A DNA stretch of 64,000 nucleotides, from positions 59,568 through 123,567 of the forward strand of contig CAWBLF010000001.1 in NCBI GenBank assembly GCA_963789635.1, read 5' to 3'. The stretch is from an uncultured bacterium. GTDB lineage: Bacteria > Patescibacteriota > Minisyncoccia > Phycocordibacterales > Zambryskibacteraceae. The notes under the pieces are model-generated. The model ran no database searches. It was not told the origin of the DNA and was given only the letters and a program-made list of their open reading frames with translations. The number at the start of each line of letters is the position of its first letter. Within the stretch, counting starts at the first letter, position 1. A program made the translations under genes and the position numbers. Shown here piece by piece: positions 3,166 to 61,904 of the stretch.

Positions 3166-4530
3166 ATGCCACCCGAAAAGGAATCTCACATTGAGTTTAA
3201 TGACGACACAATAGCAAAAGCAAGCGCCGAGGCAATAAGTCTTGGTAAAAAAAGTTTTGAGGAACAAAAAAATGCTTTTGGTACGGTGCAAAACAGCATA
3301 AGTGATGGCACTAAGCAAGAAACCGAGAAGGAAAATCAACCTGTGGTCATAAAAAGTCTGCGAACTTACCAAGGTGACATCGCCGAAGCCATAAAAAATC
3401 AAAATGCGTCAGTGTTAACCATTGCAATGGCAGAACAACAAAGGGTTGGGGAGAGGGAAGATCAAAAAGAAAAGGAAGAATTCAAGCCACGAACGATTCT
3501 TCAAAGAATAAAAGGTGAAAAGCCCAAACCTCGCACCCCGACGCCAGAGTTTGTCCCTCCCCGTATTGAGCCAAAGCCAAAACAAGCACCAGCGACGTTC
3601 ACACCACCTCCCATCTTCAATGTTCCTCCTACCCAGAGCGTCAATGTAAAACCAAGCAGGCCGGAATTCCCGTCAAAGATTGTTTTTGGAGAAGCGCCAC
3701 AAAAAAAGATTAACGACGCGTTTCGACGTGACACAGTCACCATCGCGATAAGCATCCTACTTATCCTTCTCGGTGTAGGCGCTGTAGCGGGTTTTTATTT
3801 TTTACAAAAGACTCCTCCAAAACCTGCCGCTGCGCCAGCCTCTGAACTCACAATTATCCCTTATGATACCAAGGAAACTATATCGACTGCCGACCTTGGT
3901 AGAGAGTCTTTGTTGCAAAAACTGAATGCCATTCGACGCGGGGCTCCCATTGCCGACGGCTCTGTTCATTATGTGGAATTGACCAGTGGAGCGACCTCTA
4001 CCATCCCTATTTCAACCAATGATTTATTTTCAATTCTCAATACAAATATTCCGGGCAACGCTATTCGCGCCTTCGGTCCAAATTTTATGTTTGGTTTCTA
4101 TGGAATAAACGGCAACCAACCATTTATTCTCATATCTTTGAATTCATTTGAAAACGCATATGCAGGCATGCTCGAATGGGAAAAGGATATGAATACGGAT
4201 GTGGGGGCGATATTTTCTCCTTCGGCTGTGGCTCTGACACAATATGTGCCAATTAACACACCAGCGGTAGCCAGCACGAGCGGCGTCAAAAATGTCATCG
4301 CCACAGGCACTACAGCTGTCACCACTATTGCAAACCTCGGTCCGGCATCAGATAGTCAGTTTGGAGATGTCACCATTCAAAACAAAGATGCCAGGGTGCT
4401 AAAAAACTCCCGAGCAGAAACGATTCTTTTGTATTCATTCATCAATCAAAATACTTTACTCATAACATCCAACGAATCTGTGTTAAGTGCAATGATAGGC
4501 AAATTCACACAGCAACAATATACTCGCTAG
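3166..4530 (+). CDS. Hypothetical membrane-anchored protein (Pro-rich linker, single TM)
   Basis: 454-aa ORF with a Pro/Lys-rich segment (PKPRTPTPEFVPPRIEPKPKQAPATFTPPP), then the TM segment TVTIAISILLILLGVGAVAGFYFL and a large C-terminal domain. No family was recognised. Confidence 0.6.
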   Translation: MPPEKESHIEFNDDTIAKASAEAISLGKKSFEEQKNAFGTVQNSISDGTKQETEKENQPVVIKSLRTYQGDIAEAIKNQNASVLTIAMAEQQRVGEREDQKEKEEFKPRTILQRIKGEKPKPRTPTPEFVPPRIEPKPKQAPATFTPPPIFNVPPTQSVNVKPSRPEFPSKIVFGEAPQKKINDAFRRDTVTIAISILLILLGVGAVAGFYFLQKTPPKPAAAPASELTIIPYDTKETISTADLGRESLLQKLNAIRRGAPIADGSVHYVELTSGATSTIPISTNDLFSILNTNIPGNAIRAFGPNFMFGFYGINGNQPFILISLNSFENAYAGMLEWEKDMNTDVGAIFSPSAVALTQYVPINTPAVASTSGVKNVIATGTTAVTTIANLGPASDSQFGDVTIQNKDARVLKNSRAETILLYSFINQNTLLITSNESVLSAMIGKFTQQQYTR

Positions 4531-40194: not shown

Positions 40195-40581
40195 ATGTTT
40201 CGCCCAAATAAGCTCATTCTCGTGTTGTTCGCGGTGGCCACAGCCGGCTGTGGCGGAAGTATCGGCATTACTGGTGTGGGAGGGGTAATCAACATCGGTT
40301 TTGCCCAACCCATGCCCGTCACCAACTTGGTGTCAAGGCAGCAGGTGACCTTCGTGGATGTGGTAAATCCATGCAACCCCGCCAAGACGGTGTTGCGACT
40401 CACACTGTCGGAGGGGGGTAACATTTACCCCTCCAAGTTCAACTGTTACTTACCATATAGTTTTCAACTGATGGCCAAGGGCTATCTTGTTGAAGGAGAC
40501 ACGGTTTACGTCGGGTACGCGACGACGTACGTAAACCGTCAATACCCACAGGCGTGGAACATCACCTACCTGTGGCAGTAG
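40195..40581 (+). CDS. Putative lipoprotein
   Basis: MFRPNKLILVLFAVATAGCGG (lipobox ATAG|C), with GGAGG located 5-9 nt upstream of the ATG. Confidence 0.6.
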   Translation: MFRPNKLILVLFAVATAGCGGSIGITGVGGVINIGFAQPMPVTNLVSRQQVTFVDVVNPCNPAKTVLRLTLSEGGNIYPSKFNCYLPYSFQLMAKGYLVEGDTVYVGYATTYVNRQYPQAWNITYLWQ

Positions 40582-44420: not shown

Positions 44421-44623
44421 CAATTAAATATGCGCCCATAGCTGTTTTGGTAGGTATACAGGGAATGTGGTAAGTTTGAAAAGTAAATAAATTATGCGCC
44501 CATAGCTGTTTTGGTAGGTATACAGGGAATGTGGTAAGTTTGAAAAGTAAATAAATTATGCGCCCATAGCTGTTTTGGTAGGTATACAGGGAATGTGGTA
44601 AGTTTGAAAAGTAAATAAATTAT
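44421..44623 (+). repeat. Tandem 64-bp repeat (3 units) made of the tRNA-Lys 5' end fused to a conserved core, directly abutting the tRNA
   Basis: Units start at 44432, 44496 and 44560 (period 64), and the true tRNA starts at 44624. The unit is GCGCCCATAGCT+GTTTTGGTAGGTATAC+agggaatgtggtaagtttgaaaagtaaataaattat. Confidence 0.9.
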
Positions 44624-44696
44624 GCGCCCATAGCTCAGCTGGTAGAGCAGATCCCTCTTAAGGATAAGGTCGTAGGTTCGATCCCTACTGGGCGCA
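44624..44696 (+). tRNA. tRNA-Lys (anticodon CTT)
   Basis: Hand-folded cloverleaf: acceptor GCGCCCA/TGGGCGC, D arm GCTC-AGCTGGTA-GAGC, anticodon loop CT-CTT-AA, T arm GTAGG-TTCGATC-CCTAC. Confidence 0.9.
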
Positions 44697-45029
44697 CAAA
44701 ATACAGAAACATCCCGCCTGCGCGGGATTTTCTGATTCTGTGCGAGGCGCAGACATGTTTTGTAGTAACAAAACAGTCGAGCCGGGGTCGCGAGATTTTT
44801 CTGCAGAAAAATACTTGTGACCACAAATACAGAAACATCCCGCCTGCGCGGGATTTTCTGATTCTGTGCGAGGCGCAGACATGTTTTGTAGTAACAAAAC
44901 AGTCGAGCCGGGTGAGAGCGAACACTCGGAGCTTTGCAAGACCTTGAGCGTTTTGTATTCAAAATGCGAAAGGTGTACAGATCCTGTAAGGATCGCGGAA
45001 ATTTTCAGTAGAAAATTATCTGTGACCAC
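44695..45029 (+). repeat. Two tandem copies of the tRNA-trailer composite element (H1-H2-H3-GTGACCAC); the second copy carries an ~85-nt insertion
   Basis: Copy 1 spans 44695-44824 and copy 2 spans 44822-45029. The first ~90 nt are identical (period 126). See findings for the hairpin structure. Confidence 0.85.
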
Positions 45030-45036
45030 TAGACAC

Positions 45037-47063: not shown

Positions 47064-48365
47064 TTATTGAAATCTTTTCTCCAATGCTTCCCGTGCAATT
47101 TCCGCATCGTCCCACGGGATTTTTTTGCCACCAGATACGCACATGTATTGTTGTGAGCCCATGCCGGTGATTAGAATCACATCATTTGGTTTGGCAATCA
47201 AGATTGCTTCCCGCACAGCTTCACGGCGATCAATAATTATTTTTGGGATATGTCTTGTGATGCCCGGCATCATGTCGTCAATAATGTGTCTAGGATCCTC
47301 GTCGTATGGATCTTCGGTTGTCAGAATGATGGTGTCGCAAAAAGTGTCCGCAACCTTGGCCATACCCGGGCGTTTCCACGTATCACGACCACCGCCGGTG
47401 TTGCCCAATACGCAGATCAATTTCTTTTTAGAAATTGATCCCGAGTTTTCACGCGGGATAGAATTACTGAATGATTTATAAAGCGCTTCGAGCGATTCAA
47501 TGGTATGCGCATAGTCAACAACAACATCAAAGTTTTGTTGGTCACCAATCTTAACGTGTTCACCGCGTCCACGAATGACAGACAGTTTTGAAATACCATG
47601 CGAAATTACTTGCAACCCAATTCCAAAAGCTTCAGCAAATGATATTGCTGCCACAAGATTTGAAACATTGTAGTCACCTTTTAATGGAGAATGCATTGTT
47701 ACTCCTTTGTAATGAAGTGTTATTCCGTTTTCATTACTAACAAAAGGTTTTGCGTTTTCCAATGAATAACGAACGACTTCTGTGGCTTTTCTCGGAACAA
47801 AAAAATCTGCCGCTTTGTCATCAGCATTGATTATTGCCACCCGGCGTTTTTTGGGTGATTCGGAAAGAAGCTTGGCGATACGCTGTTTGTGTTTGCTATA
47901 TTTCTCAAATGAGCCGTGTGACTCTATATGCTCCGGCGCCAAGTTTGTAAAAACAAAAGCATCAAGGTAAATAAATTTGTGACGAAATTGTTTTGCCCCC
48001 TCCGAAGTCATTTCAATGACCGCCCAGTCACATTTTTCGTTTATCGCCTTTTTCAGAAATTTTTGTAAATAAGAAAGCCCCGGCATACTCATTCCAAAAT
48101 TATTCAATTCCGATTTGTTTCCGATTTTGAACCGAAGGGACCCACTAAGCGCTGTTTTGTAGCCCGCTTCTTCCAGTATGGCGTTTATCATTTCTGCGGT
48201 GGAAGTTTTGCCTTTAGTTCCGGTGATGGCCACTACACGTAAATTGCGAGAAGGGAAGCAGTAGTACGTGGCTCCGAAAAAAGCAAGAAAGTAGTGATAA
48301 GCAGGTTGAAAAAACTTAAAAATTTTCTTTGGTATGAGATGACGAAGAAATTCTTTGATGCTCAT
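47064..48365 (-). CDS. Mur ligase family protein (MurE-like)
   Basis: P-loop AITGTKGKTSTAEM, central and C-terminal Mur ligase domains (...VDYAHT..., ...GNTGGGRD...). Substrate specificity is not assignable from sequence alone. Confidence 0.7.
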   Translation of the reverse strand: MSIKEFLRHLIPKKIFKFFQPAYHYFLAFFGATYYCFPSRNLRVVAITGTKGKTSTAEMINAILEEAGYKTALSGSLRFKIGNKSELNNFGMSMPGLSYLQKFLKKAINEKCDWAVIEMTSEGAKQFRHKFIYLDAFVFTNLAPEHIESHGSFEKYSKHKQRIAKLLSESPKKRRVAIINADDKAADFFVPRKATEVVRYSLENAKPFVSNENGITLHYKGVTMHSPLKGDYNVSNLVAAISFAEAFGIGLQVISHGISKLSVIRGRGEHVKIGDQQNFDVVVDYAHTIESLEALYKSFSNSIPRENSGSISKKKLICVLGNTGGGRDTWKRPGMAKVADTFCDTIILTTEDPYDEDPRHIIDDMMPGITRHIPKIIIDRREAVREAILIAKPNDVILITGMGSQQYMCVSGGKKIPWDDAEIAREALEKRFQ

Positions 48366-48940
48366 TAATTTTTATTTCCAAGAATTTTTAGGGAATGTTT
48401 TACTCTTTCGCCGGTGTCGGTGATTTCTTTGGGCACTTTTTTCATGGCCTCGCGGGCTTCTCTTTGGGAGTATCCCAGAGCGGTCAGCGCCTCGATGACA
48501 TCACTATCATCGGTAATTGCCGTCTCGTCGCCCGCTACCGCCGGTCCCAATTTACCAGAAAGTTCCAAAACAATCTTTTCCGCATTCTTTTTGCTTAGGC
48601 CAGAAACTTTGGTGAGCTCGGTCGTATCCTCGGTAAATACGGCGTTGCGGAGCATTTTGATACTGGCCACATTCAGGATTGCCAAAGCTGTTTTCGGACC
48701 AATGCCGGAAATCGTAATAAGTAGTTCAAAAAAATCCAAGGTTTCTCGATCGGCAAAGCCATAAAGGTCTAGCGCCGTTTCTCGGACAGCCAAATAAGTC
48801 CAAAGAGAAGCAGTTTGTCCTTCGTGAAGAGTCGAAAGGAGTTGGCCGGTGGCGCTTATTTTGTAGCCCACGCCGTGAACATCGAGCACAACCCCGTGCG
48901 TGTTGACTGATATAACCGTGCCTGTAAGGTGAGAAATCAT
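48365..48940 (-). CDS. ruvA: Holliday junction DNA helicase RuvA
   Basis: MISHLTGTV...VLDVHGVGYKI, HhH motifs LLITISGIGPKTALAIL and TKVSGLSKKNAEKIVLEL, and the C-terminal domain EALTALGYSQREA. Confidence 0.9.
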   Translation of the reverse strand: MISHLTGTVISVNTHGVVLDVHGVGYKISATGQLLSTLHEGQTASLWTYLAVRETALDLYGFADRETLDFFELLITISGIGPKTALAILNVASIKMLRNAVFTEDTTELTKVSGLSKKNAEKIVLELSGKLGPAVAGDETAITDDSDVIEALTALGYSQREAREAMKKVPKEITDTGERVKHSLKILGNKN

Positions 48941-49054: not shown

Positions 49055-49098
49055 TCTAAAACTTGCGTTTGAGCAAGGTTTCGGGTAGTATCTCCTTC

Positions 49099-49362
49099 AT
49101 GCCAATTACCACATCAGCCAAAAAGGCCCTACGAAATTCCAGACGAAAACGGGATTTTAACCTTGCCCGTAAAAAAACTCTCACTCTTTCAGTCAAAACA
49201 CTGAAGAAGCTTATCGGAGAAAAGAAAGTAAAAGAGGCCAGAGCATTTTTCCCAACGGTTCAGCAGGCGTTTGATAAAGCAGTAAAAACAAATCTTATAA
49301 AAGCAAAGACATCTTCCCGTAAAAAAACTCGTTTGGCGGCAGCAATAAAAAAGATTTCATAA
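49099..49362 (+). CDS. rpsT: 30S ribosomal protein S20
   Basis: MPITTSAKKALRNSRRKRDFNLARKKTL...AFDKAVKTNLIKAKTSSRKKTRLAAAIKK. The ATG at 49099 lies inside the TTG-initiated ORF 49063..49362. Confidence 0.9.
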   Translation: MPITTSAKKALRNSRRKRDFNLARKKTLTLSVKTLKKLIGEKKVKEARAFFPTVQQAFDKAVKTNLIKAKTSSRKKTRLAAAIKKIS

Positions 49363-49392: not shown

Positions 49393-49431
49393 TTTGCATC
49401 TGAGTAGGAGTATCTCCTTCGACTAAATTAT

Positions 49432-49572
49432 GTGGTCACGAATAATTTTTGTTTCGTCAAACAAAAATTTTCTCGACCCCGGCTCACCATAGCCAATTGC
49501 TATTGGCTATATGTTTGCGCCTAGCACAGAATCAGAAAATCCCGCGCAGGCGGGATGTTTCTGTATTCTGTG
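49432..49572 (-). repeat. tRNA-trailer composite element copy (3' of tRNA-Arg-GCG)
   Basis: On the tRNA-sense strand: H1 identical to the 44.7-kb copies, H2 = ATAGCCAAT-agca-ATTGGCTAT, GAGCCGGGGTCG, H3 = AATTTTTGTTT-gacg-AAACAAAAATT, and the end ...TTCGTGACCAC. Confidence 0.85.
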
Positions 49573-49642
49573 CTCCCAGTAGGAATCGAACCTACATTTT
49601 AACTTCCGCAAAGTTATATCCTATCCATTGAACGATGGGAGC
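49571..49642 (-). tRNA. tRNA-Arg (anticodon GCG)
   Basis: Hand fold: acceptor GCTCCCA/TGGGAGC, anticodon arm TAACT-TT-GCG-GA-AGTTA, T arm GTAGG-TTCGATT-CCTAC. The D stem relies on G-U pairs and the variable loop is 4 nt. Confidence 0.75.
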
Positions 49643-53098: not shown

Positions 53099-53185
53099 GG
53101 AGGAGTGGCAGAGTGGTCTATCGCACCGCTCTTGAAAAGCGGAAGGCTCGAAAGGGTCTCGTGAGTTCGAATCTCACCTCCTCCG
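53099..53185 (+). tRNA. tRNA-Ser (anticodon TGA)
   Basis: Acceptor GGAGGAG/CTCCTCC, anticodon arm CCGCT-CT-TGA-AA-AGCGG, a long variable arm, and T arm GTGAG-TTCGAAT-CTCAC. Confidence 0.9.
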
Positions 53186-53337
53186 CAATGATCCGCGAAA
53201 ATGTCTGGGAGACATTTAAACGGAGCATCATTTCTAGAGGAGGTGAGATTCGAAAGCCATAGGCCAGCGTAGGCTGGCGAGGCGGGGTAGCGGAAATTTT
53301 CAGCAGAAAATTATCCGTCGCCGAATCTCACCTCCTC
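53186..53337 (+). repeat. tRNA-Ser trailer element variant, ending in a 16-nt direct repeat of the tRNA 3' end
   Basis: An inverted 18-nt copy of the tRNA 3' end sits at 53237-53254. H2-like hairpin: GCCAGC-gtag-GCTGGC. Then GAGGCGGGGTAGCGG, H3 AAATTTTC-agca-GAAAATT, and the direct repeat CGAATCTCACCTCCTC (53322-53337 = 53168-53183). Confidence 0.8.
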
Positions 53338-56789: not shown

Positions 56790-56867
56790 ATAATCAGCCG
56801 GAACTTTTCATTTTAGGGGACAATTAGCAACTTTTGGTATCAAATTTTGTTGTATAATTCAGATGTA

Positions 56868-57917
56868 ATGTCCAAAAGCTTCTTTGATTTTTTCCCCACC
56901 CCAAAATTTCTTGAAATGCCTGCCCCCGGTATGGCGCTTACAGACGCAGGCATCACTTTCATAGAATTTGGCTATCACAATGACGAGCTTGAAATAGAGC
57001 GGTATGGTTCGGCTGACCTTCCTCAAGGCCTGATAGTCGGAGGAGTAATAAAAGACCAGGAGCATTTTGTTCACGCTCTAGAAAATTTTCGTAAAAGCTT
57101 TAAGTTGCAACATATTCGTACCTCATTTCCAGAAGAAAGAGCGTATTTGTTTCAAACGACAGTGCCGGATGTAGGCACCGGCGAACTTCGTGACGCGGTG
57201 GAGGCGACCATCGAAGAAAATGTTCCACTTTCTTTGGCGGAAATTGTTTTTGATTACAATGTTTTGCCCCAAACAGACACCACCTTGGAAGGCAAGATAA
57301 ACGTCTCCGTATCCGTGGTGCCGGAAACGGTAGTGCTTGAATATTTGTCTGCTTTTAGAACAGCCGGTTTCATACCGCTTCACTTTGATGTGGAATCACA
57401 GGCAGTTACCAAAGCTCTAGTTTCACCCAACGACGCGGGGGTAAGCCTGATTGTGAATCTCAACACGACCAAAGCGGGCATTTATATTGTTTCCGATAGC
57501 GCGGTGACATTTAGCTCTATTATCAATGTCGAACCGCCAAACAAACCACGTACACATTTTTCTAAAATCCAAAACAAAAATGTAGAGATGTCTCAAGTTG
57601 ACATACTTTCGGATTATTCCGGACTCCCATCGCTGGTCCAAGAAATAAAAAAAATATTTTTGTATTGGCAAGCGCAAGCGGACAGACTCAACCAAAGACC
57701 ACGACAAATAGAACGTATCATTTTGTGTGGAAATGAAGCCGGCAGACCGGGGATAACGGAATATATAGAGAGCGAGACAAAACTTAAAACCGAGCTTGGT
57801 AATGTGTGGCGCAATGTTTGCACATTTGAACATTACATACCACCCATTCCTTTGGCCGAGTCTTTGGCTTATGCAGGAGCTGTGGGACTGGCTCTTCCAC
57901 ACCAAGATATTTCTTAG
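56868..57917 (+). CDS. pilM: Type IV pilus assembly protein PilM-like (actin-like ATPase fold)
   Basis: ~350 aa immediately upstream of PilN/PilO-like genes, with the pattern ...GLALTDAGITFIEF...IVFDYNVL...LIVNLNTTKAGIYIV... ATG 56868 lies inside the TTG-initiated ORF. Confidence 0.65.
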   Translation: MSKSFFDFFPTPKFLEMPAPGMALTDAGITFIEFGYHNDELEIERYGSADLPQGLIVGGVIKDQEHFVHALENFRKSFKLQHIRTSFPEERAYLFQTTVPDVGTGELRDAVEATIEENVPLSLAEIVFDYNVLPQTDTTLEGKINVSVSVVPETVVLEYLSAFRTAGFIPLHFDVESQAVTKALVSPNDAGVSLIVNLNTTKAGIYIVSDSAVTFSSIINVEPPNKPRTHFSKIQNKNVEMSQVDILSDYSGLPSLVQEIKKIFLYWQAQADRLNQRPRQIERIILCGNEAGRPGITEYIESETKLKTELGNVWRNVCTFEHYIPPIPLAESLAYAGAVGLALPHQDIS

Positions 57918-59070: not shown

Positions 59071-59403
59071 ATGAAAAAAATTAACTTTAAAAAATTAATC
59101 TCACAGATACACCTACCGAAAAAGAAGGAGTATCGGACTATAAGCGGAAAGGCGCAACACGATTGGAAAATATTATCGATAGGCTTTATGGTTGTTGCCC
59201 TTATCGTGATTGGAGTAAATACACTTTTATTTTTCAAAGTGAACAACCCAGGACCTTCACAGGGCGCGTCTGCCCAAGATATGACAAGCGGTGTCATCAG
59301 CAAGAAAAACCTTGATGATACGGTTCAATTTTTTCAAGCAAGGGCTACACGCCTAACCGAATTGAAACTGAATAAGCCGAACGTCCCAGATCCATCTCTA
59401 TAA
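59071..59403 (+). CDS. Hypothetical single-TM protein, last gene of the pilMNO operon
   Basis: MKKINFKKL... with the TM segment ILSIGFMVVALIVIGVNTLLFF. The start is taken at ATG 59071 within ORF 59041..59403. Confidence 0.5.
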   Translation: MKKINFKKLISQIHLPKKKEYRTISGKAQHDWKILSIGFMVVALIVIGVNTLLFFKVNNPGPSQGASAQDMTSGVISKKNLDDTVQFFQARATRLTELKLNKPNVPDPSL

Positions 59404-59406
59404 TTG

Positions 59407-59497
59407 TGGTCAGTGGTTTCGTCTACAGACGAAACATTACTTAGCTCGGCACAGAATCAGAAAATCCCGCGCAGGCGGGATGTTTCTGTATTCTGTG
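59407..59497 (-). repeat. Short tRNA-trailer element copy (3' of tRNA-Arg-TCT)
   Basis: On the tRNA-sense strand: canonical H1, CCGAGCTAAGTAAT, the hairpin GTTTCGTC-tgta-GACGAAAC, and the end CACTGACCAC. Confidence 0.8.
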
Positions 59498-59567
59498 CCC
59501 CCGGTAAGAATCGAACTTACATTGACGGCTTAGAAGTCCGCAGTTCTATCCATTGAACTACGGGGGC
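59496..59567 (-). tRNA. tRNA-Arg (anticodon TCT)
   Basis: Acceptor GCCCCCG/CGGGGGC, D arm GTTC-AATGGATA-GAAC, anticodon loop CT-TCT-AA (the stem has one G-U pair and one A/G mismatch), T arm GTAAG-TTCGATT-CTTAC. Confidence 0.8.
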
Positions 59568-59623
59568 ATGCATAACTAATCTTACACAAAAGCGTTATAT
59601 ATTAAAGCAAAAATATTGTGTTG

Positions 59624-59705
59624 TGGGCACGGAGAGATTTGAACTCTCAAGCCTTGCGGCATACGCTTCTGAAGCGTACGCGTATACCAGTTCCGCCACG
59701 TGCCC
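59624..59705 (-). tRNA. tRNA-Leu (anticodon CAG)
   Basis: Acceptor GGGCACG/CGTGCCC, anticodon arm TACGC-TT-CAG-AA-GCGTA, a long variable arm (TGCCGCAAGGCT), T arm GAGAG-TTCAAAT-CTCTC. Confidence 0.85.
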
Positions 59706-59763
59706 ATTATCTACCTACTTATCATATCAGTGCTTTATAATACGCATAACAATCGTGCATTTG

Positions 59764-59783
59764 TACCAGTTCCGCCACGTGCC
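59764..59783 (-). repeat. Orphan 20-nt copy of the tRNA-Leu(CAG) 5' end (tRNA nt 2-21)
   Basis: TACCAGTTCCGCCACGTGCC at 59764-59783 is identical to 59685-59704 inside the tRNA. The copy lies 58 nt upstream of the tRNA in the tRNA orientation. Confidence 0.85.
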
Positions 59784-59794
59784 AAAATGTGTTT

Positions 59795-59930
59795 GTGGTC
59801 ACAGATAATTTCTTTGCCGTCGCAAAGAAATTTACGCGACCCCGCCTCGCGGTTTTGCGTACTCGCAAAACATCGCTGTGGCTCCCACAAAAGCACAAAA
59901 TCTGCCGAAGGGAGGTCTTTGTGTCTTTTG
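59795..59930 (-). repeat. tRNA-trailer composite element copy (3' of tRNA-Val)
   Basis: On the tRNA-sense strand: a divergent H1 (CACAAAAGACACAAAG...CTTTTGTG), H2 = GTTTTGCG-agta-CGCAAAAC, GAGGCGGGGTCGCG, H3 = AATTTCTTTGC-gacg-GCAAAGAAATT, and ...TCTGTGACCAC. Confidence 0.8.
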
Positions 59931-60003
59931 TGGGCGGTAGAGGATTCGAACCCCTGACATCTTCAGTGTAAATGAAGCGCTCTACCAACTGAGCTAACCG
60001 CCC
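59931..60003 (-). tRNA. tRNA-Val (anticodon TAC)
   Basis: Acceptor GGGCGGT/ACCGCCC, D arm GCTC-AGTTGGTA-GAGC, anticodon arm CTTCA-TT-TAC-AC-TGAAG, T arm AGGGG-TTCGAAT-CCTCT. Confidence 0.9.
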
Positions 60004-60251
60004 GTTACCTGCGTATACCTACCAAAACAGCTAATCGCCCGCTTACGTATACCTACCAAAACAGCTAATCGCCCGCTTACGTATACCTACCAAAACAGCT
60101 AACCAAACACAACACCTGCGTATACCTACCAAAACAGCTAACCAAACACAACACCTACGTATACCTACCAAAACAGCTAACCAAACACAACACCTGCGTA
60201 TACCTACCAAAACAGCTAACCGCCCATCACTCACGTATACCTACCAAAACA
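60004..60251 (-). repeat. Array of 7 copies of the 22-nt unit TTAGCTGTTTTGGTAGGTATAC (tRNA-sense strand) with short recurring spacers, directly 5' of tRNA-Val
   Basis: Plus-strand copies of GTATACCTACCAAAACAGCTAA lie at 60013, 60047, 60081, 60120, 60159, 60198 and 60235 (the last truncated). Spacers: tcgcccgcttac (x2), ccaaacacaacacct[g/a]c (x3) and ccgcccatcactcac. Confidence 0.9.
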
Positions 60252-60326
60252 AACGACTATGTCTGTACAACTTACAACAAAACTACTCTTAATGCCAGAT
60301 TATCAAATTTACTATATATTAGACGC

Positions 60327-61671: not shown

Positions 61672-61753
61672 GCCCGGGTGGAGAAATTGGTAGACTTACT
61701 ACCTTGAGGTGGTAGCGCCGAAAGGCATGCAGGTTCGAGTCCTGTCCCGGGCA
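61672..61753 (+). tRNA. tRNA-Leu (anticodon GAG)
   Basis: Acceptor GCCCGGG/CCCGGGC, anticodon arm CTACC-TT-GAG-GT-GGTAG, a long variable arm, T arm GCAGG-TTCGAGT-CCTGT. Confidence 0.85.
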
Positions 61754-61801
61754 CAGAATGCAAAAACATCCCACACAAACGGGATGTTTTTGCATTCTGT
61801 G
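61752..61801 (+). repeat. H1-type trailer hairpin variant (perfect 21-bp stem) abutting tRNA-Leu(GAG)
   Basis: CACAGAATGCAAAAACATCCC-acacaaac-GGGATGTTTTTGCATTCTGTG. It shares the CACAGAAT/ATTCTGTG base and ATCCC/GGGAT top with the canonical H1, while the middle segment differs on both arms. Confidence 0.85.
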
Positions 61802-61904
61802 CCTGAAAGTATGCTTTTGAGTTTACATAGCTATTTCCTGGTGTAGTATTAAGAAGCAGAGATATAAGATAAACATATTTATATTATCAGATTTATTTTA
61901 AATT

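Follow-up and report, generated by a model that had tools for sequence, protein, structure and literature searches.

Among described RNAs that border bacterial tRNAs, the closest comparisons come from Escherichia coli. RtT occupies the 3' trailer of the tyrT tRNA operon as tandem units that end in a copy of the tRNA 3' terminus and are released by tRNA processing, and it is limited to enterobacteria and to a single locus. 3'ETS-leuZ is a functional RNA cut from a tRNA precursor trailer, a short sponge with little structure whose pairing partners are small RNAs. T-box and RNase P RNAs read the tRNA 3' end by Watson–Crick pairing with nucleotides that covary with the tRNA (the T-box discriminator contact is UGGN:NCCA, that of RNase P RNA GGU:CCA).

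Here we analysed a 64,000-nucleotide stretch of DNA (the window) from an uncultured patescibacterium, in which a hairpin-rich stretch at 49.4 kb proves to be one copy of a conserved folded RNA that follows many Patescibacteria tRNA genes and is apparently undescribed. Like RtT, this element lies in tRNA trailers, forms tandem units (44.7–45.0 kb) and has units that close with a duplicate of the tRNA 3' end (15 nt in a serine unit, 17–20 nt in loci L052, L067 and L075 of the genome survey below); the likeness is one of analogy and not homology, and RtT (RF00391) gave no match in the Rfam scans. Unlike RtT, it follows many different tRNAs phylum-wide and combines a covarying three-way junction with isoacceptor-specific pairing to the acceptor strand. 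It differs likewise from 3'ETS-leuZ, which has no conserved multi-helix core and does not pair with its own tRNA. The reading of a tRNA 3' end by covarying Watson–Crick pairs is shared with T-box and RNase P RNAs, but the element pairs in cis with acceptor positions 70–72 of the precursor rather than in trans with the mature NCCA; it is not upstream of any gene, as a T-box would be, and no T-box or RNase P family of Rfam matched it. When the window was searched with the 4227 covariance models of Rfam 15, among them every known small ribozyme as well as T-box, RtT and tRNA-like families, only seven tRNAs passed the gathering thresholds. In E-value scans of positions 44600–44960 and 59380–60020 against Rfam, the element drew only tRNA and chance-level matches, the best non-tRNA match being RsmY (20.6 bits, gathering score 57). 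The searchable full-text literature, which holds little on Patescibacteria RNA biology, describes no Patescibacteria tRNA-trailer RNA; papers on Patescibacteria tRNA introns deal with an unrelated matter, group I introns in the anticodon loop.

Five copies with the conserved core, one being the 49.4 kb element, and two partial copies are present in the window, all directly 3' of tRNA genes and on the tRNA strand. The tRNA that precedes the 49.4 kb element and the remaining copies are given below, H1 being the long hairpin with which a copy begins.

49570–49642, minus strand: tRNA-Arg(GCG), from ARAGORN, the Rfam tRNA model (60.5 bits) and sequence.
44695–44828, plus strand: copy 3' of tRNA-Lys(CTT), H1 and core (core 44739–44828), from a covariance-model match of 87 bits and the fold.
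44822–45033, plus strand: tandem second unit behind the Lys copy, from model matches 44865–44964 and 44965–45033.
53187–53337, plus strand: copy 3' of tRNA-Ser(TGA), from sequence and a model match at 53249–53328 (37.5 bits).
59791–59933, minus strand: copy 3' of tRNA-Val(TAC), H1 and core, from a model match of 85.4 bits and sequence.
59405–59496, minus strand: partial copy 3' of tRNA-Arg(TCT), from sequence, its H1 apex the same as in the Lys and Arg-GCG copies.
61753–61805, plus strand: lone H1-type hairpin 3' of tRNA-Leu(GAG), without core, from sequence, with no model match.

The units span 90–210 nt and contain no open reading frame. The tandem unit at 44822–45033 is composite, combining the standard element ('type A') with a second trailer module ('type B'): its order is H1, the 5' strand of helix P-x, H2, GAGCCGGG, an inserted domain of ~65 nt terminating with GAAAGGUGUAC and a hairpin with a UGUAA loop, and then the basal helix and H3, an architecture that recurs in loci L084 and L105. 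The Ser(TGA) copy has a closing helix P1 of 15–16 bp, whose 3' strand (53323–53337) is a 15-nt duplicate of the tRNA 3' end (53169–53183) and whose 5' strand (53237–53251) is the complement of that 15-mer. The partial Arg(TCT) copy has H1, H2 and ...CUGACCACA, and is without GAGSCGGGGU, the basal helix and H3. A weak match at 40356–40406 was rejected (E = 0.07, within an ORF, no tRNA). ARAGORN called only the eight true tRNAs of the window and the Rfam tRNA model only seven; the core, with a three-way junction and no D or anticodon arms, was not recognised as tRNA or tRNA-like by either. Only the basal helix with its A-C-A looks like an acceptor end. By Pfam, the genes nearby are ordinary chromosomal ones (S20, RuvA, Mur ligase, Fpg, SpoU methylase, PilM).

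RNAfold of positions 49420–49572 on the minus strand gave −65.6 kcal/mol (z = −8.6) and recovered the fold proposed in an earlier note on this DNA; the antisense strand folds well too, if less well than the sense strand (−59.1 kcal/mol, z = −7.3). The earlier note had missed helix P-x and the closing helix P1, and had overlooked that H1 is terminator-like and that the acceptor 3' strand is paired in an isoacceptor-specific manner. In the revised fold, H1 starts inside the tRNA 3' end and is followed by a three-way junction of P1, P-x with H2, and the basal helix with H3.

49525–49574, minus strand: H1, long hairpin, from the minimum-energy fold, a terminator-like scan match at 49556–49539 and the pairing of columns 1–7 with tRNA N75–N70.
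49519–49521, minus strand: 5' strand of P-x (GGC), from RNAalifold columns 8–10 with 74–76.
49486–49514, minus strand: H2, from fold and covariation, with a lower stem of 2–3 bp, a bulge and then AUAGCCAAU-AGCA-AUUGGCUAU.
49481–49483, minus strand: 3' strand of P-x (GCC, within GAGCCGGGG), followed by the junction GG, from RNAalifold and covariation.
49434–49478, minus strand: basal helix into H3, from fold and covariation, all 16 pairs changing on both sides in some copy.
49431–49433, minus strand: 3' ACA, which can form the closing helix P1 with U1-G2-U3 (49526–49528), from P1 covariation in copies without ACA.

The tRNA-Arg(GCG) gene does not encode CCA, its 3' end reading A70 G71 C72 A73 and then C74 A75, and the 3' ACA of the element is the same trinucleotide as A73-C74-A75. 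The 5' strand of H1 consists of tRNA A70–A75 and then CAGAAUACAGAAAC, its apex is AUCCCGC-CUGC-GCGGGAU, and its 3' strand is UUUUCUGAUUCUGUG followed by C and U. Between H2 and P-x lies an internal loop with RSA on its 5' side and GA on its 3' side; the basal helix, GGUCGAGAA / UUCGUGACC, includes a G-U pair and a bulged A, both conserved, and H3 is AAUUUUUGUUU-GACG-AAACAAAAAUU. The hairpin variants from which the earlier note argued are present in the sequence, both the four of H3 and those of H2 (Lys GTTTTGT-AGTA-ACAAAAC, Val GTTTTGCG-AGTA-CGCAAAAC, Arg-GCG ATAGCCAAT-AGCA-ATTGGCTAT, Ser GCCAGC-GTAG-GCTGGC and Arg-TCT GTTTCGTC-TGTA-GACGAAAC), as are the two G-T pairs of the basal helix GGTCGCGAG/CTTGTGACC and the change of its inner pairs from GAG/CTT to GAA/TTC (49.4 kb) and GGA/TCT (45.0 kb). 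The 45.0 kb copy, which had been taken as insertion-bearing, is the conserved composite variant and is found in other genomes as well. The blocks described as conserved and unpaired are in part paired: the S in GAGSCGGGGT has an upstream S, complementary to it, as its partner, and GGT and GTGACC are the two strands of the basal helix. One of them, GTGACCAC, is not invariant as claimed, the Ser copy reading GTCGCC. Hammerhead, HDV-like and K-turn readings of the junction, judged by eye, are not supported by the conserved positions, and a promoter inside H3 was rejected, its consensus matching the antisense strand only and being lost in G+C-rich lineages.

The criterion for an intrinsic terminator (a G+C-rich stem-loop plus a U-rich tract) is met by H1 only and not by the core, and a terminator-like scan flags all four H1 copies, with the apex ATCCCGCCTGCGCGGGAT followed by TTTCTGATTC. 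H1 thus resembles the intrinsic terminators that follow tRNA genes in its G+C-rich apex stem, the U-rich tract behind it and the flanking A-tract, but it differs from them in having a conserved core downstream of the U-tract, in sitting also between tRNAs that must be co-transcribed, and in extending three base pairs into the acceptor stem. If H1 were an efficient terminator, the core would be made only through read-through.

Outside the window, an exact-pattern scan of 185,579 species genomes yielded at least 120 loci. Among the 120 matches listed, about 109 are true, all in Saccharibacteria or Paceibacterota/Parcubacteria, and 11 were rejected as coding-sequence matches outside Patescibacteria (Proteobacteria, Actinobacteria, Clostridia and others). 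From the true loci we derived a covariance model, which finds about 170 copies in 0.93 Mb (8-kb loci); nearly all true copies score above 35 bits, against 20–27 bits for the five non-Patescibacteria loci that the model reports. The sole viral-contig match (L121) was rejected, with 21 bits, no tRNA and a resemblance to the proteobacterial false positives. Partial tRNA duplications flank some copies and hint at rearrangement at the DNA level.

The fold of the element is not due to chance. Across 149 distinct copies, which come from about 100 genomes, pairing holds in 94.7% of base-pair cells, compared with 74.3% for shuffles (0 of 500), and the covariation score is 0.515, against 0.149 when shuffled and at most 0.08 with slid partners. 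Changes on both sides are seen in 24 of the 25 pairs. The alignment was fitted to the model, and its loci were fetched by an exact pattern for two conserved blocks, so ascertainment is biased. All four modelled helices (P1, P-x, lower H2 and basal/H3) have covariation support. The middle pair of P-x is CG in 50 and GC in 43 of the 93 copies in the RNAalifold alignment, and other P-x variants read ACC/GGU, GAC/GUC and GUC/GAC. P1 is only about 3 bp in most copies, and its shuffle test is uninformative because UGUG/CACA is common to most of them; the evidence for it comes from the 30 copies without ACA, in which it covaries (UUUG/CAAA, AUUG/CAAU, CUCG/CGAG, UUCG/CGAA, UGGG/CCCA). Non-helical positions are also strongly conserved, namely G4 (140/149), the 3' GA (146/149), the junction GG (140/149) and the bulged A (146/149), with GGA in 84 and GCA in 44 copies on the 5' side of the H2/P-x internal loop. 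A possible three-way covariation of the first G of GGGG with basal-helix position 6 appears in only 5–6 sequences. One G-U pair is nearly invariant (144/149), and a second alternates between G-U (76) and G-C (53). These two pairs are compatible only with the tRNA-sense strand and thereby support an RNA transcribed with the tRNA. The strand asymmetry of G-U pairs in the earlier note holds overall (270 G-U versus 36 A-C cells), but two columns supply most of it and elsewhere the counts are 50 versus 35.

The position of the copies points the same way. Among 134 evaluable copies, 98 lie at most 80 nt downstream of a same-strand tRNA and 18 stand in tandem behind another copy, while none has only an opposite-strand tRNA nearby. 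At 21 loci the element lies between two tRNAs (tRNA1-H1-core-tRNA2), with shortest gaps to the next tRNA of −1 to 13 nt; the gap is at most 13 nt in eight of these, which leaves no space for a separate promoter. Copies of one genome have diverged like those of different genomes and are still paired. The view that selection acts on an RNA transcribed with the tRNA is therefore supported by orientation and position, the inter-tRNA layout, the strand-specific pairs and this independent maintenance. Transcription together with the tRNA is itself inferred from gene layout, without expression data. At variable columns, same-genome copies share an identity of 0.52 and copies from different genomes 0.51, same-anticodon copies from different genomes reach 0.556, and an identity of 90% or more is seen in only one of 76 same-locus pairs. 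The element is not a recent repeat, its copies within a genome being no closer than those between genomes.

The pairing with the tRNA is specific to the adjacent isoacceptor. Core columns 5 and 7, the two variable positions ahead of P-x, pair with tRNA N71 and N70 in 91 of 98 copies each (56 and 45 expected from shuffles), and column 1 follows N75 in 91 of the same 98 (71.5 expected); the pairing ends at N69 (3/98). In the 14 copies whose tRNA starts GGG (the alanine pattern, with U at 70), the element has A and not G opposite position 70, which indicates base pairing and not copying of the tRNA 5' end. Behind tRNA-His the element terminates in CCA, matching C73-C-A; in genomes that encode CCA its end is still ACA, an imperfect mimicry of the tRNA 3' end. 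Genes ending in N73-CA account for 99 of 110 tRNAs with the element and 101 of 141 without. Some tRNA types bear it seldom or never (Pro 0/19, Leu 5/39, Gly 1/13, Cys 2/13, Ser 2/13, Phe 0/4), and since so many tRNAs lack it, 3' maturation cannot depend on the element in general. The same tRNA pairs carry it in distant lineages (Lys-CTT then Leu-TAG; Val-CAC then Pro-CGG).

The anatomy that emerges is clear: the 5' strand of H1 is the tRNA's own 3' end (N70–N75) plus trailer, its 3' strand leads straight into the three-way junction, the junction nucleotides are nearly invariant, and the stretch linking H1 to P-x is matched to each isoacceptor. Our preferred reading, to which we give somewhat less than an even chance, is that the element is a structured, Patescibacteria-specific 3' trailer domain of pre-tRNA that acts as a clamp on the tRNA 3' end, probably so that this end can be processed; this function is inferred and has not been demonstrated. 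The linker between H1 and P-x can disrupt the first three base pairs of the acceptor stem and seat the tRNA 3' end against the conserved core, and the trinucleotide behind the basal helix, which repeats N73-C-A of the tRNA, is a competitor for the same UGU strand. The domain would then serve as a cis-acting maturation module for CCA-less tRNA genes, presenting the tRNA 3' end, in a defined helix beside the core, to an endonuclease or to a catalytic core of its own, and would afterwards be cut out by normal tRNA processing at both flanks.

It is unlikely, in our judgement, that the trailer merely houses the gene of a stand-alone small RNA, in which case tRNA processing would free a stable product of ~100–140 nt that works in trans, for example as a scaffold for proteins or a sponge, much like RtT or 3'ETS-leuZ. 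The fold is discrete and very stable, the conserved single-stranded and non-canonical positions would suit a protein- or RNA-binding surface, several diverged copies are each maintained per genome, and the tandem units with tRNA 3'-end copies recall the tyrT/rtT repeats. Such an RNA, however, would not explain the fit of columns 5 and 7 to N71/N70 of the adjacent tRNA, or a start that always falls inside the tRNA 3' end, and neither RF00391 nor any other Rfam small RNA matches.

A bolder form of the cis-acting idea, for which we see only a small chance, is a new catalytic or switch RNA class in which the guide strand U-G-U-G-N-N pulls N70–N75 from the acceptor stem onto the junction core, where the RNA or a recruited Patescibacteria-specific factor cuts or gates CCA-less tRNA 3' ends. 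Its catalytic version would be a self- or tRNA-cleaving ribozyme with the junction as catalytic core, H1 and its extension as substrate helix, and an inferred cut at or near N73. The tRNA stands in cis with every copy, the guide-like strand complementary to N70–N75 varies with it, and the near-invariant junction nucleotides, the conserved G-U pair and the possible three-way covariation are what a catalytic core might show. We nevertheless consider a ribozyme improbable: the covariation comes from so few sequences, no Rfam 15 ribozyme family is similar, the proposed cut region is a regular Watson–Crick helix and lacks the internal loop that small ribozymes typically have, and the element is missing from many tRNAs.

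Decidedly improbable is a non-autonomous mobile DNA that targets tRNA 3' ends, whether an IS200/IS605 or REP-type relic or a miniature integrase-type insert, with the hairpins as recognition structures in single-stranded DNA, which would tolerate G-T pairs too. Like REP/BIME and IS200/IS605-derived miniatures, the element is a short, hairpin-rich, multi-copy intergenic repeat after genes with strand-specific folding; it occurs in tandem arrays, and partial tRNA 5' duplicates adjoin some copies. Direct repeats of the tRNA 3' part flank a minority of copies (Ser 15 nt; L052 and L067 about 20 nt), whereas most share only CACA. Unlike REP/BIME, it has no near-identical copies within a genome, so that, by the identities given above, the families of such copies that recent transposition of a miniature transposon would leave are absent and no recent spread is seen; its single-stranded blocks are conserved phylum-wide, and individual loci keep compensatory changes. 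The fit of each copy to N70/N71 of its flanking tRNA would be unexpected for a transposon, and the same tRNA pairs recur with the element across distant lineages. The units, of this size and without an open reading frame, carry no integrase or cargo genes, and the only viral-contig match is a chance one.

Very improbable is a ligand- or factor-sensing switch, in which UGU-G-N-N pairs with either the tRNA 3' end (the H1 extension) or the element's own 3' ACA (P1) and a ligand or protein bound in the junction would select one of the two states and thereby gate maturation. Conserved nucleotides in a three-way junction that a short P1 closes are typical of aptamers, and A73-C74-A75 of the tRNA and the ACA of the element are identical competitors for one UGU strand; yet these competitors differ in CCA-encoding genomes, P1 is short in most copies with an uninformative shuffle control, and there is no candidate ligand or gene association. 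The absence of any dedicated function, with an intrinsic terminator followed by decaying duplicated tRNA pieces, is effectively refuted, for although H1 fits the terminator consensus and tRNA fragments are common near these loci, decay cannot yield the observed pairing, covariation and near-invariant junctions across two classes of a phylum.

The Patescibacteria, ultra-small bacteria of the candidate phyla radiation, account for much of bacterial diversity; their genomes are minimal, and most of them have not been cultivated. In them, the element constitutes a new RNA family that is phylum-wide, multi-copy, strongly covarying and coupled to tRNA genes, and is found neither in Rfam 15 nor in searchable papers. 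To our knowledge, isoacceptor-specific pairing with acceptor positions 70–72 has no precedent among bacterial tRNA trailers, and it offers a concrete and testable handle on the maturation of CCA-less tRNAs in Patescibacteria. A covariance model would improve the annotation of tRNA loci in metagenome-assembled genomes and pick out RNAs derived from trailers in metatranscriptomes, and it could also be used to mark lineages. If the core were catalytic or ligand-responsive, it would represent a new ribozyme or switch class tied to tRNA biogenesis; in these very reduced genomes, an RNA would then take over part of the work of the machinery that processes tRNA 3' ends.

A covarying structure in tRNA sense is conserved in two classes of Patescibacteria. 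In the copy at 49.4 kb, read on the tRNA strand, the element consists of a 48-nt hairpin (H1) followed by UAGGCGCAA, then H2 (AUAGCCAAU-AGCA-AUUGGCUAU), GGU-GAGCCGGGG, and H3 (AAUUUUUGUUU-GACG-AAACAAAAAUU) enclosed by a basal helix, with the 3' end GUGACC-ACA. RNAfold gave -65.6 kcal/mol (z = -8.6), with the H1, H2 and basal helix-H3 layout as described in the earlier note, whose hairpin sequences and basal-helix variants were all found in the window. None of the eight tRNA genes of the window encodes CCA, and C-A follows the discriminator base in all eight; this encoded N73-C-A end, not N73-C-C-A or an unrelated trailer, also occurs in 200 of 251 tRNAs of the fetched loci. Trailers related to the element follow six of the eight genes.

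Features of the window
49432-49572, minus strand: studied element, trailer of tRNA-Arg(GCG), located from the sequence
49570-49642, minus strand: tRNA-Arg(GCG) gene, with the element directly 3'
tRNA-Lys(CTT) trailer: one full copy and a second, composite unit in tandem
tRNA-Arg(GCG), tRNA-Val(TAC) and tRNA-Ser(TGA) trailers: a single copy at each
tRNA-Arg(TCT) trailer: copy without the second half
tRNA-Leu(GAG) trailer: H1 alone
49063-49362, plus strand: ribosomal protein S20
48365-48940, minus strand: RuvA
47064-48365, minus strand: Mur ligase
56847-57917, plus strand: PilM, type IV pili

The flanking genes are all of ordinary chromosomal kinds, which fits a Saccharibacteria-like chromosome better than a phage or plasmid.

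Further loci were obtained by scanning 185,579 species, each represented by one genome, for TGTGGTCAC-N18-48-CGACCCCGSCTC, which spans two conserved blocks and was matched exactly, with 8 kb fetched per genome. Because the loci were fetched by exact match and the 120 listed are a minimum, block conservation and taxonomic range are biased, lower-bound estimates. Eleven loci, from lineages outside Patescibacteria (Proteobacteria, Actinobacteria, Clostridia and others), were rejected as coding-sequence coincidences, five of them reported by the covariance model at 20-27 bits; the single match in the viral collection was a chance hit. Among the matches listed, the other 109 loci come from Patescibacteria or bins titled just 'bacterium', and all named ones are Candidatus Saccharibacteria or Paceibacterota/Parcubacteria (the latter as Nomura-, Kaiser-, Adler-, Zambryski- and Taylorbacteria), names being those given by submitters. 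The covariance model, built on 93 cores, recovered 157 copies within 781 kb, and the rest of the loci yielded 13 more true ones. The scan pattern is absent from 47 of 150 aligned copies, which are therefore free of pattern bias.

The core of the element is a three-way junction, in which four helices are supported by RNAalifold and pair counting.

Helices of the core
P1: short closing helix, 3 nt 5' of the invariant G with 3 nt 3' of GACC
P-x: 3 bp, S of the upstream RGSCG block with S of GAGSCGGGG
H2 lower stem: 3 bp below a variable upper hairpin, two-sided changes at 3/3 pairs
Basal helix and H3: 16 modelled pairs, two-sided changes in some copy at 16/16

The middle pair of P-x is CG in 50 and GC in 43 of 93 copies and is never unpaired, and ACC/GGU, GAC/GUC and GUC/GAC variants were seen later. 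P1 is UGU/ACA in the majority, and the 30 copies missing ACA carry UUUG/CAAA, AUUG/CAAU, CUCG/CGAG, UUCG/CGAA, CUUG/CAAG or UGGG/CCCA. Over all modelled helices, two-sided changes occur at 24 of 25 base pairs, paired cells amount to 94.7% vs 74.3% in shuffles (0/500), and the covariation score is 0.515 vs 0.149 shuffled, with slid partners at 0.08 or below. The alignment behind these figures was fitted to the model and is biased toward structure; a MAFFT-only alignment gave the same picture. Since the copies are related to one another, shuffle counts are not probabilities. The non-helical positions of the junction core are nearly invariant: G4 (140/149 copies), the GA on the 3' side of an asymmetric internal loop (146/149), the GG of the junction (140/149) and a bulged A between basal helix and H3 (146/149); one G-U pair is kept in 144/149. 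Three size classes exchange loop types between arms: short (H2 loop GACG, H3 loop AGCA), medium (H2 loop AGYA, H3 apex GAGC-GACG-GCGA) and long-H2 (internal loop within H2, H3 loop GUCA). Six copies have A as the first base of GGGG, with C-G at basal-helix position 6 becoming U opposite C (four copies) or U opposite A (one), at columns 87, 95 and 174 of the model-fitted alignment (about 49480, 49473 and 49439 in the 49.4 kb copy). This co-change may reflect a tertiary contact or base triple, on a very small sample.

The proposal of the earlier note that the element is transcribed with its tRNA is supported by several observations together, expression itself not having been observed. Among 134 evaluable copies, 98 lie within 80 nt 3' of a same-strand tRNA, 18 lie behind another copy, and none has an opposite-strand tRNA as the sole tRNA nearby. 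The element lies between two tRNAs in 21 loci (typically Lys-CTT then Leu-TAG, Val-CAC then Pro-CGG, or Arg-GCG then Arg-CCG); in eight of them only -1 to 13 nt separate ACCACA from the following tRNA, so that its transcription must run through the element. The antisense strand of the 49.4 kb element folds more weakly by 6.5 kcal/mol. The claimed strand-specific G-U pairs hold as an overall excess (270 G-U vs 36 A-C cells), but two columns give most of it, and elsewhere the counts are 50 vs 35.

The element is co-linear with its tRNAs, and one of its strands is tRNA-specific, being complementary to N70-N75 at the tRNA 3' end. The 5' strand of H1 begins within the tRNA, and its 3' strand continues into the core as U1-G2-U3-G4-N5-N7. 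The H1 apex and U-tract match the intrinsic-terminator consensus; despite these features, H1 is also found between tRNAs that must be co-transcribed.

Pairing of core columns with tRNA positions in the 98 copies adjoining a tRNA
Column 1 with N75: paired 91/98, shuffled 71.5
Column 4 with C72: paired 98/98, shuffled 98.0
Column 5 with N71: paired 91/98, shuffled 56.2
Column 7 with N70: paired 91/98, shuffled 45.1
Column 8 with N69: paired 3/98, shuffled 3.5

These counts indicate an isoacceptor-specific strand able to substitute for the first three base pairs of the acceptor stem. In 14 copies the tRNA starts with GGG and has U at position 70, as in the alanine pattern, and A rather than G stands opposite position 70, which points to selection for 3'-strand pairing, not copying of the 5' strand. 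The trinucleotide 3' of the basal helix, ACA, equals A73-C74-A75 of the tRNA, and the element after tRNA-His ends in CCA, in line with C73. Elements that follow Ser, Cys, Gly, Leu and some Val tRNAs end in 15-20 nt that repeat the tRNA 3' end from the T-loop on, and P1 is then a long helix resembling the T-stem plus acceptor stem. In the minority of genomes that encode CCA, the H1 3' strand has GGUG in place of UGUG and so matches the tRNA, whereas the element still terminates in ACA.

The H1 apex ATCCCGC-CTGC-GCGGGAT is identical in four trailers of three different tRNAs (44711-44728, 44837-44854, 49539-49556 and 59464-59481), whose cores differ, and in many other Saccharibacteria H1 again has a CUGC loop with a closing C-G pair. 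From this, H1 appears homogenised or under separate constraint. Another conserved module of the trailers, type B, reads ...UCGAAAACC...hairpin...GAAAGGUGUAC with a further hairpin whose loop is UGUAA. What comes next on its 3' side is either 17-20 nt repeating the tRNA 3' end or, in composites, the main element's basal helix/H3. The window copy that the earlier note called insertion-bearing is such a composite, and two other genomes have the same one.

Type B modules and truncated tRNA duplicates
Type B: window 44913-45033, plus strand; locus L084, about 4030-4215; loci L105, L052, L054, L075, L079, L029 and L020
Truncated 5' duplicates of the downstream tRNA (Glu, Leu-GAG, Ala), preceding some copies: L083, 4467-4650; L032, 2760-2960, minus strand; L046, 3830-4070, minus strand

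L083 has an inverted T-arm fragment in addition, and these three loci suggest repeated partial duplication or rearrangement. Tandem repeats lie immediately 5' of tRNA-Lys (three 64-nt units, 44432-44623, plus strand) and tRNA-Val (seven units of 34-39 nt, 60004-60255, minus strand). Every unit opens with about 12 nt, intact or degenerate, from the 5' end of its tRNA and continues with a common 16-mer, GTTTTGGTAGGTATAC (10 exact copies vs 0.44 expected). Stacked promoters are one possible reading, truncated duplications of tRNA 5' ends another. A 20-nt duplicate of the tRNA-Leu(CAG) 5' end, GGCACGTGGCGGAACTGGTA (59764-59783, minus strand), sits just 3' of the Val trailer element, about 60 nt 5' of the actual tRNA-Leu.

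In this biased locus set, the element is frequent after Lys (24/27), Ile (10/11), Tyr (3/3), Glu (6/8), Val (15/23), Ala (16/27) and Arg (25/45), and rare or absent after Pro (0/19), Leu (5/39), Gly (1/13), Cys (2/13), Ser (2/13) and Phe (0/4).

Five other readings were ranked. A released small RNA acting in trans comes first, and a ribozyme second. Third is a relic of mobile DNA, against which copies in one locus are no closer than copies from different genomes (mean identity 0.52 vs 0.51 over 67 variable columns, and 0.556 where copies from different genomes share an anticodon). Only one of 76 same-locus pairs reaches 0.9, and a single genome can carry different size classes. Same-locus identity so near the between-genome value, with few near-identical pairs, implies copies that are old and individually maintained, and such divergence argues against recent mobility. 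A conformational switch ranks fourth, and debris without function is excluded by the covariation.

No Rfam 15 family matches the element, and a full-text literature search found no description of it. RtT/tyrT trailer repeats and 3'ETS RNAs of E. coli lie in tRNA trailers and are freed by processing; they are among the nearest analogues, in location and in the release inferred for the element. Likeness to intrinsic terminators is confined to H1, and the T-box and RNase P, in contacting the tRNA 3' end, share the principle of reading it through pairing. None of these has the fold of the element, nor do any of them show cis pairing with acceptor positions 70-72.

A protein nuclease, RNase P or Z, or the element's own RNA may act at the tRNA end, a choice that computation cannot make. 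The reading we prefer is inferred: the element would be part of the pre-tRNA, excised when the 3' end of the tRNA is processed and, where another tRNA follows, when the 5' end of that tRNA is, and its role would be in 3'-end maturation, with the tRNA end presented beside the conserved core.
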